From NCBI RefSeq assembly GCF_055900595.2, contig NZ_CM148325.1: a stretch of DNA of 64,000 bases. The stretch is one strand, 5' to 3'. A program made the position numbers and the translations under genes. The first letter of the stretch is position 1, and each line of letters opens with the position of its first letter. Below the pieces are notes generated by a model that saw nothing but the letters and a program-made list of their open reading frames with translations, made no database searches and was not told the origin of the DNA. Below, piece after piece: positions 2,417 through 48,630 of this stretch.

Positions 2417-2430
2417 CACAACCTCTCTAT

Positions 2431-2459
2431 AAAAAAGGTGCTACGGCACCTTTTTTATT
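2431..2459. terminator. rho-independent terminator after cyoE
   Basis: aaaaaaGGTGCtacgGCACCttttttatt: GC stem flanked by A-run and T-run, so potentially bidirectional. Confidence 0.8.
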
Positions 2460-2469
2460 GTCTGAGAAC

Positions 2470-2547
2470 AGAGATACGGCTAATAACCGTATCTCTTGAC
2501 AGAGTGAGTATATGCACATAAATTAATCATACGGTTGATAGCCGTAT
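2470..2547 (+). promoter_or_regulatory. putative promoter/operator of the toxin-antitoxin operon
   Basis: Perfect 10-bp inverted repeat agagatacgg/ccgtatctct (2470..2496) overlaps TTGACA (2496..2501); a second atacgg/ccgtat palindrome at 2529..2547 shares the same core. Confidence 0.5.
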
Positions 2548-2600
2548 TATGCATGAGATCGACTCCCTACGATTTCATTCAGTTAATCAAAGAGGTCATA

Positions 2601-2912
2601 ATGCCTGGAAAAACAGTCGCTCTACCCGATATCGATAAAACGCTGAAAAATGCGCGGGTTGAACTCAAAACCAGTCCCGACGCCAAAAACAAACTTCGTG
2701 AAGCTGCGCAAGCCGTTGGGGTAGATTTAAGCGCTTTTATTTTGAGCGCAGCTATGGAACGCGCCGAAAGTGTGCTTGATAACCAACGTCGCCGTGAGCT
2801 TTCGAATCAAAGCTGGGAACTGATGAACCAACTCATCGCTGAACCTGCTCAACCGACGCTCGCCCTCAAGGCGTTAATGAAAAGGAAAAACAGCGATGGT
2901 CGACAAGCATGA
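2601..2912 (+). CDS. DUF1778-type antitoxin (TacA/AtaR/ItaR-like) of a GNAT toxin-antitoxin pair
   Basis: 103 aa from ATG 2601 with AGAGG Shine-Dalgarno upstream; the ORF-track start at 2535 is a non-ATG extension; immediately precedes and overlaps a GNAT ORF. Confidence 0.7.
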   Translation: MPGKTVALPDIDKTLKNARVELKTSPDAKNKLREAAQAVGVDLSAFILSAAMERAESVLDNQRRRELSNQSWELMNQLIAEPAQPTLALKALMKRKNSDGRQA

Positions 2913-3438
2913 AGAGATTACTCTGCCCATAGTCCTCTCCTGTAATTATCAGTCTGATATTACTTATCCTGGGCAAAAACAGTTTGATTGCGGTAACCCT
3001 GTTATCGATAAATTTGTACGCGCATCGCTAAAGAAAAGTGTGCGTAATAGCGACTGTGCTGCTAAAGCACTTATTGACAGACAAAGTGGTGAACTGATTG
3101 GCATCTGTACTTTTACGGCATATTCGCTGGAAAAACAACGCGTTTCTGGCGTCCTTCAGGGTTCACAACCTTCAGAGATTGGTGTTGTCAGATTAGTCAT
3201 GTTAGGGGTAGCGCGGAAATATCAAAAGCGGGGCTTTGGTCAGGACCTACTATGTGATTTTTTTGAACATGTAAAAATAATTCACCGGGCATTACCAATT
3301 AAAGGGGTTTATCTTGATGCTGACCCTGCCGCCATTAACTTTTATACTCGTCTCGGCTTTGTTCAGCTTTCAGCGAGGCCCAATGTTTTCGGTGCTGTAC
3401 CGATGTTTTTAGCGATTCAGCATATTCTCGCGGCTTAG
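2896..3438 (+). CDS. GNAT-family acetyltransferase toxin (TacT/AtaT/ItaT-like, predicted aminoacyl-tRNA acetylating)
   Basis: 180 aa; overlaps the upstream antitoxin by 17 nt; FDCG motif near N-terminus and Q-x-x-G-x-G acetyl-CoA motif (YQKRGFGQ). Confidence 0.7.
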   Translation: MVDKHEEITLPIVLSCNYQSDITYPGQKQFDCGNPVIDKFVRASLKKSVRNSDCAAKALIDRQSGELIGICTFTAYSLEKQRVSGVLQGSQPSEIGVVRLVMLGVARKYQKRGFGQDLLCDFFEHVKIIHRALPIKGVYLDADPAAINFYTRLGFVQLSARPNVFGAVPMFLAIQHILAA

Positions 3439-3682
3439 ATTATTATCGCCTCCGGCCATGGCAAGTTTTGCCTCAGCCGGAGACTGAGCAGCGTTACCAC
3501 TTTTGTTCAATTGCCCCCGCTTTCATCAGGTCCACATCCTTGCCTTTAATGGTTGCCGTTGCGGCAACGATCGTGGTCCTTATAGCTGCACAAGATTTTC
3601 GTTCAAATTCCGGTTTATAAAGAATAAGCAACGAATTACTGGTAAATGAATCAAGCCGGTAATCTGTAAAGTTAATATCCAG

Positions 3683-4429
3683 TCAGTTTAAGCCGAAAGG
3701 TGCAAAGCCGACCGTTTGAATAGTTTCCTTACCTGACGGACTCTTGATGTTGTACGTAACACGAAGATTGGCCACTTCGCCTAATTTATTGGTTTTGGCA
3801 AAGAGGCTATCCATGCAGGAAAAACCTTTATCTAAAAAATTATCCCGCATTCCAGAACGGGTAATCGTGATCACCGGTAACGTATCGTCAACCGTTTTTC
3901 TGTCAATCATATCTTTTCGACAGGCGGCCATAAAGTCTTCCGGACCAGCATAAATGTGAACACCCTTATCAAGATATTCTTTCGCTTTACTACAATCCAC
4001 CTCGACATACTGACCATTGGCGTACATCATGCCCAACCTGGACCATGCTAAATTCACACCGCGTTGCGTAGCCTGATTAAATAACGTATACGCTTTGGCG
4101 TAATCCACTCGCACCTGTTCACCTTCGTAGTAGATATTCCCCAGCGCTAACGGAGCTTCTTCATCACCTTGTTTAGCGGCTAACTCGAACCATTTAATGG
4201 CTTCCTGAACGTTGGGTTTGGTATCGTAGCGGGGCTGATAATATTCCCAGCCTAACAGGCTTTGCGCGTCGACATCCCCCGACTCAGCCATTTTATACAG
4301 TGTCCTTATCACATCGGGGGCAGGCTTTTCACTGTATATGCTGTCATACAATTCATGCGCTTTCTCGCTTGCCAGTGAACCTTGTGAGGCAATTAATAAA
4401 ATAGCCAATAAACTCTTTTTATTTAACAT
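3683..4429 (-). CDS. secreted Sel1/TPR-like repeat protein with an uncharacterised C-terminal domain
   Basis: 248 aa; N-terminal signal peptide MLNKKSLLAILLIASQGSLA; Sel1-like repeats (AAKQGDEEAPLALGNIYYEG, ATQRGVNLAWSRLGMMYANG); AT-rich. Confidence 0.65.
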   Translation of the reverse strand: MLNKKSLLAILLIASQGSLASEKAHELYDSIYSEKPAPDVIRTLYKMAESGDVDAQSLLGWEYYQPRYDTKPNVQEAIKWFELAAKQGDEEAPLALGNIYYEGEQVRVDYAKAYTLFNQATQRGVNLAWSRLGMMYANGQYVEVDCSKAKEYLDKGVHIYAGPEDFMAACRKDMIDRKTVDDTLPVITITRSGMRDNFLDKGFSCMDSLFAKTNKLGEVANLRVTYNIKSPSGKETIQTVGFAPFGLN

Positions 4430-4845
4430 AAATAACCTTTATGCATCCATCACTATATTTTTCAATATACCTAACCACCAAACATCCACTTCATGAATAA
4501 ATACACAGCCATAACAACCTCAGGTAATAAGTAAACATTTAAGCTGAAGCAGAATAACCAGCACCTCCAACACCTCTATTTATTGCGATAAAATAACACC
4601 ATCCTTTAATAAAAAATAACACACTCATCAACAAATCCGAAAATAATATCATTCGTGGCAGGATAAAATCAGGCGAGCTTTTCATTTGTTATATTTAACG
4701 CACAAAGTATTAATGGCAAGAATACGAGAGAAGCGCATGCCTGACGTAAAAATCACGCTCTTATGTAATATTTACTCATTAACACTCTGTTTACCCAACA
4801 TGCGCTCCGCACTACACTATGTGGGCAATTTTTTAAGAGGTGGTA

Positions 4846-46036: not shown

Positions 46037-46345
46037 TTAACAGCTCCGCTTTTGGGTATCAATATATTCACGCAATAAATCAGAAATTGAACAAATATCC
46101 GTCAGATAAGGATACCAGCAAGTTTCACCATGAAAATTACGCACTCCACCATTGCCTGCCATAAAGTCTTTTGGGTAATCCCAGATCACGTCTTTATCCA
46201 ACGTGATCCAATAACGCGGTAAATCGGTGCTTCCACCATTTTGGCTGCGCATGGGATAACGGGTACAGTGAATTTGCAGGTTGATCGTTGGCGTCAGTAA
46301 GTCATAAATCTCCCTCTGTAACTTGCTCCAGGGGCGTTGTGTCAT
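46037..46345 (-). CDS. small hypothetical cytoplasmic protein, translationally coupled to the upstream 762-aa gene
   Basis: 102 aa; start ATG overlaps the upstream stop (ATGA); GAGGA Shine-Dalgarno inside the upstream gene; no signal peptide or TM segment; several Cys/His/Trp. Confidence 0.6.
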
Positions 46346-48630
46346 TGTTTTTCCTCAAGCCGGTTACGCGCTTCACTGCGAATTTGCCGCGTTGCCCCGG
46401 TTTTCACTAAATCACGTAACTGCGAAAGATCGGGCTGATCGACAAATAAGATTAATGATGGATCCTCTTTTAACCACGCCGTTTTCACATCGGCAGCCAA
46501 CTGTGGATTATTAATAGCCAGCGCCCGATCCTGTGACTCAGTCAATGTCGTTAACAAAGAGGCTGGGGTATGTACATTGCGCAACGCCGTCTGCCGCAAA
46601 TGATCATTGTGACTTTTCAGCAATCCGCACCACCATTCATCATCTGATTTATCTTTTATCGTATCCAGCTCCGCAAAAATATCGCTTTCCTCATGATTCC
46701 AGCGGTGTAATCCTCTTTCACTTTGTCTACGGGTGCTATTTTTCATACTGACAACAGACAACGCCCAGTCAGAGTTAAAACGATACTGTTGATCGAGTTT
46801 GTTGATAATTCCGGAGGGTAAATCTTTATTATCAAATAACTGGTTTCGCATCCGATAGCGGTATTCAGCAGGTAAATAAACCAGTAAATCGATAGCATTA
46901 TTAAGCATCTCTTCGTCAATAATACCATTATCAATCAGCGCCAGCTGTACTTCGTAGGCTTGCTCTTGATCTTCTTGCCGTTTACTCATCATTAATTTTA
47001 AGGTGTGTTGCCATAATTGTTTCTTATACTCCAGAGGTAACAATTTATCGCGTGCCAGCTCATACCAGATGCTGGGAATGTCATGCTGATTCAGTAGATA
47101 ACTAATCACTTCCTTCGAGGTCAGATAACGCATGCCGTCACGTAAATTGTGCACATCTTCTTTTGCCAAAGTCAGTTGACGCGACTCCGGCAAAGCGACC
47201 AATAACGCCTTCACGATATTTTTATTTTCTTTATTATCCAGATACATTTGTTCTGCGATACGTTCAACATCCTCTGTCCTCAGGGTCGCTGACAGTTGGG
47301 TGATTTTTAGTTCAGTAAGCGTCCGGGCTAATGCTTGACGAACTTTCAGCGATTTATCTTTACTCAACAACACCGCTTGTTGTGCGGTTAAATCGGTTCC
47401 GGTAATTCTTTCGCGTAACTCCAGATCTTCGCTATTTATCAATTCATCAACCACTGCAGTTGGAACCAGCCAGGCGTAATCGTAATGGCTGATTAATGTC
47501 TTGCGCACACTGAGAAAAGGGCTTTGACTTAACGATACAACAATATCAGGAGAAAGATTATCCTGTCTGGCCTGCTCCAGCTGTACGCTCTCGACGGGTA
47601 CAGACATTAATTTTTTATTCACTTCGGCGGATATATTGCTGTTTTTAACCAGTCCTCTGGCAACAGCTTCATCTTTAATTAATTCATCGGTAAGCAAATG
47701 CATGTGTTGAGCAGGCCAGGACTGCGCCATTGATTCACGCGTCTGGTCATCGGGGTGCTGTAACAGTTGCAGCATAACGGCGGTTGACAAACTTTCTATA
47801 TGAGTCAGAAAACGTGCCACCAGTGGATCTTCATGCTTTATTTTATCCGCAAGGAAATTATCGAGTTTCCCCGTTTCAATCCATTTTAATTTCTCATTAA
47901 TTTCAGGAGCAGCTTTATCTCGAAAAAGAGGTAAACCCTGAACGATATTGTCTACGACGCTATCATAGTCAGGATACGCATTGGAAATATTATCGGTTTC
48001 GATTTCACTATGATCATAAAGATTAGGCGTCACCAGTGAATAGGCTTTTTGAATATTCTCGTCCCAGTTATATTCTTCACCGCTTTCATCTTCATTGATA
48101 TAAAACTCAGCTTTGATGACCTCAAATTGCGTTGCTTTATCGGAAACAATAATGCCTCGCGCGTTAATTCCTTTCATCACTTCAAAGTTGTGATCATTAT
48201 AATCAGCATAAACTAAACCTTTTGCTGTCATCTGCCCTTTGACATACGCGAAATCATGATTAATAAAGTTATCGACAATAACATTACCTAATACAATCAG
48301 ATGACCATTACCTGACAGATAATCATCATAATCGCCGGAAATCGTTAAATTACCGTTCACCACCAGTTTATGCTGATTGCTGAAGTTAGTGGGTAATGAT
48401 AGGTCACCATTATGATAATACCAGCGGATATTATCTTTTAGCATATAAGCAGCTTCCATACTATCGTTGGTTGCCGCTTTAACCACGTTGCGCTCATCTG
48501 CCGTCATAAGATGAAAGTCAGAGGTGATAAGGTCCTCGCTACTGATCCACTCTGTGGCACATGCATTGCCAGTCATAAAAAATACGACCATACAGATGAC
48601 CAATATATTAATTCTATTCATAATCTTCAC
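46342..48630 (-). CDS. large hypothetical exported protein: N-terminal beta-rich region plus C-terminal alpha-helical repeat region
   Basis: 762 aa; AT-rich; signal peptide (MKIMNRINILVICMVVFFMTGNACA); start may be GTG 48630 or ATG 48621; no recognisable catalytic motif. Confidence 0.65.
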   Translation of the reverse strand: MKIMNRINILVICMVVFFMTGNACATEWISSEDLITSDFHLMTADERNVVKAATNDSMEAAYMLKDNIRWYYHNGDLSLPTNFSNQHKLVVNGNLTISGDYDDYLSGNGHLIVLGNVIVDNFINHDFAYVKGQMTAKGLVYADYNDHNFEVMKGINARGIIVSDKATQFEVIKAEFYINEDESGEEYNWDENIQKAYSLVTPNLYDHSEIETDNISNAYPDYDSVVDNIVQGLPLFRDKAAPEINEKLKWIETGKLDNFLADKIKHEDPLVARFLTHIESLSTAVMLQLLQHPDDQTRESMAQSWPAQHMHLLTDELIKDEAVARGLVKNSNISAEVNKKLMSVPVESVQLEQARQDNLSPDIVVSLSQSPFLSVRKTLISHYDYAWLVPTAVVDELINSEDLELRERITGTDLTAQQAVLLSKDKSLKVRQALARTLTELKITQLSATLRTEDVERIAEQMYLDNKENKNIVKALLVALPESRQLTLAKEDVHNLRDGMRYLTSKEVISYLLNQHDIPSIWYELARDKLLPLEYKKQLWQHTLKLMMSKRQEDQEQAYEVQLALIDNGIIDEEMLNNAIDLLVYLPAEYRYRMRNQLFDNKDLPSGIINKLDQQYRFNSDWALSVVSMKNSTRRQSERGLHRWNHEESDIFAELDTIKDKSDDEWWCGLLKSHNDHLRQTALRNVHTPASLLTTLTESQDRALAINNPQLAADVKTAWLKEDPSLILFVDQPDLSQLRDLVKTGATRQIRSEARNRLEEKQ

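Follow-up and report, generated by a model that had tools for sequence, protein, structure and literature searches.

An itaRT toxin-antitoxin operon on an Escherichia coli chromosome, with a candidate operator flanking its promoter

In this study, a pair of overlapping genes at positions 2601-3438 of the window, that is, of the whole 64-kb stretch of DNA analysed here, was recognised with very high confidence as the chromosomal itaRT type II toxin-antitoxin operon of Escherichia coli, and we infer that the allele found here functions as its counterpart in strain HS does. The identity of both proteins to those of HS, the shared gene order and the family assignments together indicate that the pair is the itaRT module of Wilcox et al. 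2018 (PMC6125619), and it is an intact, ordinary and already characterised module. In RefSeq the toxin is entered only as 'GNAT family N-acetyltransferase', and the antitoxin appears as 'DUF1778' or 'TacA family antitoxin'. The name itaRT brings with it a mechanism and a target, Ile-tRNAIle, that are already known, and the main value of the result lies in correct annotation. The only addition to the known system is a pair of palindromes around the promoter, which may reasonably be taken as a previously unmapped ItaR-ItaT operator conserved across genera.

Gene organisation and family assignment

The ORF listing of the window places a 103-aa ORF at 2601-2912 on the plus strand, with ATG at 2601 and TGA at 2910-2912, and a 180-aa ORF at 2896-3438 on the same strand, with ATG at 2896 and TAG at 3436-3438; the two share 17 nt (2896-2912). 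This is the arrangement put forward in the original prediction, and RefSeq agrees with it, since matching CDSs of 312 and 543 nt are annotated in a genome whose identity to the window is 100% across positions 2420-4700. The first ORF is assigned as itaR (2601-2912, plus strand), encoding an antitoxin of 103 aa with a ribbon-helix-helix N-terminus and a DUF1778/TacA1 domain, on the basis of HS identity, Pfam and PDB matches; the second is assigned as itaT (2896-3438, plus strand), encoding a GNAT aminoacyl-tRNA N-acetyltransferase toxin of 180 aa that starts inside the last 17 nt of itaR, on the basis of HS identity and PDB entry 7BYY. A Shine-Dalgarno sequence, AAGAGG, lies at 2590-2595 in front of itaR, and a Shine-Dalgarno-like element, AAGGA, at 2882-2886 in front of itaT. 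The ATG at 2601 is the likely start of itaR given the AAGAGG element, the fit to an ItaR of 11.4 kDa and the position downstream of the predicted promoter. When the antitoxin ORF is extended mechanically to its greatest length (125 aa), it begins with TTG at 2535; this start was rejected because it lies only ~10 nt past the predicted -10 element, lacks a Shine-Dalgarno sequence and conflicts both with the 11.4-kDa ItaR (PMC6125619) and with RefSeq.

Both motifs that had been read from the second ORF are present in the toxin, FDCG at residues 30-33 (F30-D31-C32-G33) and YQKRGFGQ at residues 109-116 (Y109-Q-K-R-G-F-G-Q116), the latter including the acetyl-CoA motif Q110-x-x-G113-x-G115; FDCG is also visible in the PDB alignments of the toxin to KacT and 9ILR. 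PDB sequence search with the toxin matched 7BYY over residues 1-180 (E 1.3e-115), an entry that represents ItaT(G115D) from E. coli HS (PMC7367177), and the window toxin carries the wild-type G115. The toxin is identical to HS ItaT at 176 of 180 residues (~98%), the differences being R131Q, T151A, R161T and V164A (window residue first, HS residue last), and the antitoxin is identical to HS ItaR at 100 of 103 residues (~97%), with V6A, A7T and I11V, in the same notation, located near the N-terminus. In Pfam, the antitoxin matched TacA1/DUF1778 (PF08681, E 1.3e-17, residues 19-96) and, more weakly, a NikA-like RHH model (E 2.4e-5, residues 16-70), and its PDB matches comprise KacA (5ZGN, 3.5e-11) and AtaR (6AJM, 8.6e-9). 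The toxin matched the GNAT models Acetyltransf_7, _10 and _1, and ItaT, KacT, AtaT and TacT are the solved toxins among its PDB matches. Neither the 7BYY match of the toxin nor the TacA1 match of the antitoxin is plausibly due to chance.

The defining features of the GNAT/DUF1778 (TacAT-AtaRT-KacAT) family are present, namely the GNAT acetyl-CoA loop and catalytic Tyr, a TacA1 antitoxin gene immediately upstream and an overlapping bicistronic operon, and so are those of orthology to ItaRT, namely near-identity of toxin and antitoxin, synteny and the residues mapped by mutagenesis. A DUF1778 antitoxin followed by a GNAT toxin like AtaT, TacT and ItaT, as originally predicted, is thus borne out by these matches. 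In speaking of an ItaT-type module, the prediction had the family right but was too cautious, since by ~98% and ~97% identity to HS and by position the locus is itaRT itself.

Generic GNAT Pfam domains alone would permit the second ORF to be a housekeeping or detoxifying N-acetyltransferase (RimI/RimL-like, aminoglycoside- or polyamine-acetylating) that merely stands beside an unrelated small gene. The RefSeq label goes no further than the GNAT family, and NCBIfam contains no specific model for either protein, returning only sub-threshold matches to MobA, MshD and PaiA, of which those to MshD and PaiA are weak. However, the second ORF is 98% identical to the experimentally toxic ItaT, and the upstream gene is not unrelated, encoding a DUF1778/TacA1 antitoxin 97% identical to ItaR. 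Homology and profile searches had been proposed as a check on the prediction, and among the 17 PDB matches of the toxin at E <= 0.01 the best are GNAT toxins of toxin-antitoxin systems and the weakest is the RimI enzyme 9MTO (E 0.005). Identity to ItaT together with the cognate antitoxin therefore excludes the housekeeping reading, to which we attach a negligible probability. PADLOC gave no defence-system model for toxin or antitoxin, and nothing reached the Rfam gathering threshold across the 64 kb.

Functional residues and expected activity

ItaT of strain HS is a dimeric GNAT enzyme (PMC7367177) that on its own stops growth and translation, and is neutralised by ItaR in a tight complex (PMC6125619). 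It acetylates Ile-tRNA (PMC6125619); its main substrate is Ile-tRNAIle, mostly as the GAU isoacceptor, and Val- and Met-tRNA are further targets (PMC7367177). In vivo, ItaT makes ribosomes pause at codons for Ile, AUU and AUC above all, and peptidyl-tRNA hydrolase (Pth) counteracts the toxicity, which places the block at elongation (PMC9177977). Mutagenesis of the HS protein covered V36, I37, F40, M102, G115, Y150, L133, K46/K47 and K80, of which V36, I37, F40 and M102 form the hydrophobic aminoacyl pocket, Y150 is catalytic and L133 lies at the dimer interface (PMC7367177). All ten mapped residues (V36, I37, F40, M102, G115, L133, Y150, K46, K47 and K80) are conserved in the window toxin. The proposed basic tRNA-binding patch, for which the electrostatic surface suggested K39, R42, R50 and R82 (PMC7367177), is also fully kept (K39, R42, K46, K47, K80, R50 and R82). 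Compared with HS, itaT shows 12 synonymous and 4 non-synonymous differences, and the resulting dN/dS of 0.09 indicates that the toxin is under purifying selection.

The original prediction held that the target tRNA could not be read from the sequence, which was too pessimistic, since orthology and the conservation of every specificity-pocket residue make Ile-tRNAIle the expected primary target of the window ItaT, with Val- and Met-tRNA as probable secondary ones. Toxicity of the window ItaT and its neutralisation by the window ItaR are likewise assigned by way of the HS orthologues. ItaT would acetylate charged Ile-tRNAIle, the blocked aminoacyl-tRNA would drop out of elongation, ribosomes would pause at AUU and AUC codons and growth would stop, an effect that Pth could undo. 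ItaR would bind ItaT tightly and so neutralise it, and the complex would in turn repress the itaRT promoter; the 17-nt overlap of itaR and itaT would suit translational coupling. The window allele is expected to behave like the HS protein, as its four substitutions are conservative to moderate and fall outside all mapped functional residues.

It is conceivable, though improbable, that the window ItaT differs from HS ItaT by a shifted aminoacyl-tRNA preference or an altered potency. In the corresponding alternative to HS-like function, the window carries a derived toxin allele (R131, T151, R161, V164) that is attenuated or shifted in aminoacyl-tRNA preference, in a module that is intact in sequence. 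T151 adjoins the catalytic Y150, R131 is two residues from the dimer-interface residue L133, and evolutionary shifts in GNAT toxin specificity are known (PMC9177977). The Citrobacter outgroup has Q131, A151 and A164 as in HS, and its residue at position 161 is P (T in HS, R in the window); probable derived states in the window thus number at least three out of four (R131, T151 and V164), and position 161 does not polarise. On the other hand, the mutations known to affect toxicity or activity lie at other positions than these four, dN/dS is 0.09, the cognate antitoxin is intact, itaRT DNA at least 99% identical to that of the window occurs in 103 genomes, and the toxin of strain CE10 is identical. 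We thus consider a derived, attenuated or shifted allele very improbable, and HS-like activity remains the preferred reading. Were the allele to differ, two functionally distinct natural ItaT alleles would exist at one E. coli locus. The substitutions between the window and HS alleles may offer a natural experiment on the evolution of GNAT toxin specificity.

The promoter palindromes

A sigma-70 promoter, TTGACA-17-TAAATT, was predicted by promoter scan at 2496-2524 on the plus strand with 10 of 12 matches to the consensus hexamers, and this strong sigma-70-like promoter sits 76 bp upstream of itaR. Both hexamers, TTGACA and TAAATT, separated by 17 nt, are identical in HS, where the upstream region drives ~40-fold reporter expression and the promoter is repressed by the ItaR-ItaT complex, not by ItaR alone (PMC6125619). 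Two palindromes bracket the predicted promoter. Palindrome 1, ATACGGCTAATAACCGTAT, lies at 2474-2492, ends 3 bp upstream of the -35 element and is proposed as the distal ItaR-ItaT operator site, and palindrome 2, ATACGGTTGATAGCCGTAT, lies at 2529-2547, starts 5 bp after the -10 element, covers the transcription start, expected at about 2530-2533, and is proposed as the proximal operator site. Each is 19 nt long with the form ATACGG-N7-CCGTAT, and they are spaced 55 bp start-to-start, about five helical turns. The 64 kb contain the pattern ATACGG-N7-CCGTAT at these two sites only, where chance would give 0.11 occurrences.

The palindromes are conserved within E. coli and beyond. Palindrome 1 is invariant in the window, HS, MY203L1 and CE10, and none of the 8 substitutions that separate the 184-bp upstream region of the window from that of HS touches a hexamer or a palindrome core. 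In the Citrobacter freundii plasmid homologue, ATACGGCTGATAGCCGTAC is followed by TTGACG and then by ATACGGCCAATAGCCGTAT, the two sites standing at 1228 and 1283 of that sequence, 55 bp apart; its upstream DNA gave no blastn alignment to that of the window, and the palindrome layout is nonetheless the same. The Rahnella victoriana homologue has TACGG-N7-CCGTA on either side of a TTGACC promoter with a spacing of 57 bp. Upstream of the Serratia plasmid homologue no clear pair of TACGG-N7-CCGTA sites was found, thus the operator motif is not universal among relatives. Position and conservation suggest that the two palindromes are probably the ItaR-ItaT operator, and the repressing ItaR-ItaT complex would bind both of them. 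Neither an operator nor a palindrome is mentioned by Wilcox et al. (PMC6125619), and a full-text literature search yielded no paper mapping one. Autoregulation has been shown in HS but not mapped, and with the palindrome pair there is now a specific candidate operator, which could be tested at little cost.

The accessory islet and its distribution

The operon belongs to an accessory islet of ~2.3 kb (2462-4770, boundaries approximate) that comprises itaR, itaT and a convergent TPR/Sel1 gene and is bounded by the cyoE terminator on one side and the promoter region of yajR on the other. K-12 MG1655, without the islet, has a cyoE-yajR spacer of 148 bp, and when this spacer is aligned to the window, similarity is lost after ~2461 and regained at ~4772. 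The G+C content of the islet is 43.0%, compared with 49.9% for the window, and the gene order cyoE, itaR, itaT, TPR gene, yajR is common to the window and HS. Among 5,426 complete E. coli genomes, itaRT is carried by 1,368 (about a quarter), once per chromosome apart from a record-start artefact. In 103 of these carriers the itaRT DNA is at least 99% identical to that of the window, and in the remaining carriers it is 95-99% identical; in CE10 both encoded proteins are exactly equal to those of the window. Three E. coli 'plasmid' matches, in records of 1.2-4.8 Mb, were discounted as evidence of plasmid carriage, and the plasmid-borne relatives of itaRT have 65-72% nucleotide identity.

With the same biochemistry, the role of the module may be selfish addiction or stabilisation of the 2.3-kb islet, or abortive-infection defence against phages, rather than stress tolerance or persistence. 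A selfish, addictive role has been discussed by Wilcox et al. (PMC6125619), the accessory islet that holds the module is low in G+C and limited to about 25% of genomes, and close relatives are found on a Rahnella megaplasmid and on a Citrobacter plasmid whose genes include one with the annotation phage baseplate protein. However, PADLOC returned no matching defence model, and no phage or mobility genes flank the islet within the window. Such a role is possible, though less likely than not, and leaves the assignment of the pair as itaRT as it stands.

The TPR/Sel1-repeat gene occupies 3494-4429 on the minus strand, and was considered as a third component of the module and rejected, being absent from the Citrobacter, Rahnella and Serratia homologues, convergent to itaRT and a pseudogene here. 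It has a premature stop at codon 249 of 311, where HS has Arg, and RefSeq flags an 'internal stop' in this gene in a genome identical over that stretch. Its nucleotide identity to the HS allele is 86.5% with dS 0.43, compared with 97-98% for the adjacent itaRT, and this contrast in divergence indicates that recombination has made the islet a mosaic, the breakpoint lying close to the 3' end of the TPR gene. Between the stop codons of itaT and the TPR gene, which converge on each other across a gap of 55 bp, an inverted repeat (CTCCGGC ... GCCGGAG, arms of 7 bp, loop of 19 nt) occupies 3450-3482; the terminator scan did not call this repeat, and found no canonical intrinsic terminator for itaRT.

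Other accessory genes were observed elsewhere in the window. A pentapeptide-repeat protein of 509 aa is encoded at 14582-16111 on the plus strand. Its gene is an insertion between yajO and pgpA, neighbours with a 54-bp spacer in E. coli HS, and the protein resembles HetL and the pentapeptide effectors PipB/PipB2 only weakly, below the threshold. A Lys/Asn/Glu-rich 'hypothetical protein' of 481 aa is encoded at 29074-30519 on the minus strand between acpH and malZ, two genes that only 5 bp separate in HS. No significant match to it came from Pfam, NCBIfam, PADLOC or PDB sequence search, and its gene, an orphan of the accessory genome, is widespread, occurring in 1,127 of the 5,426 complete E. 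coli genomes. An ORF of 762 aa at 46342-48630 on the minus strand, named by RefSeq as a DUF2773 domain-containing protein, had no NCBIfam or PADLOC match; the frame is uninterrupted here, the annotation of the closely related genome E200086 shows a frameshift in its counterpart, and in HS only a remnant that lacks the N-terminal part is left.

Comparison with known and related systems

The closest system is ItaR-ItaT of E. coli HS (PMC6125619, PMC7367177, PDB 7BYY), which lies at the same site with genes of 312 and 543 nt and a 17-nt overlap, and whose promoter hexamers, palindromes and catalytic, pocket, tRNA-binding and dimer residues are identical to those of the window. The window differs from HS by four toxin, three antitoxin and eight upstream substitutions, and its TPR allele is far more divergent. 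KacA-KacT of Klebsiella pneumoniae (5ZGN, 5XUN) and AtaR-AtaT of E. coli O157:H7 (6AJM, 6AJN, 6GTS) likewise have an RHH/DUF1778 antitoxin before a GNAT toxin, and KacT and AtaT share the FDCG motif, the acetyl-CoA loop and the catalytic Tyr with the window toxin. However, both systems are distant in sequence (E 1e-5 to 1e-6 for the toxin and 1e-8 to 1e-11 for the antitoxin) and are located at different loci, and the reported tRNA preference of AtaT differs from that of ItaT, being broad with a Gly bias, with initiator Met-tRNA reported in vitro. TacA-TacT of Salmonella Typhimurium (5FVJ, 7AK8) belongs to the same family, with the TacA1 model and Pth-reversible N-acetylation of aminoacyl-tRNA; TacT is weakly similar to the window toxin (E about 8e-4), prefers Gly-tRNA and acetylates its own antitoxin, whereas ItaR is not acetylated by ItaT (PMC6125619).

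Modules of the same kind are also carried by Citrobacter freundii plasmids of ~97-99 kb (NZ_CP056338.1, NZ_CP145667.1). In the ~99-kb NZ_CP056338.1, the ItaRT-like module is located at 1468-2308, immediately downstream of a gene annotated as 'baseplate protein', which suggests that relatives of the chromosomal itaRT exist in a phage-plasmid context. The Citrobacter toxin is 77% identical to that of the window, and the module has the same 17-nt overlap and a palindrome-flanked promoter, but it differs from the chromosomal operon in being plasmid-borne, in having a longer 5' leader (~165 nt from palindrome 2 to the ATG) and in having no adjacent TPR gene.
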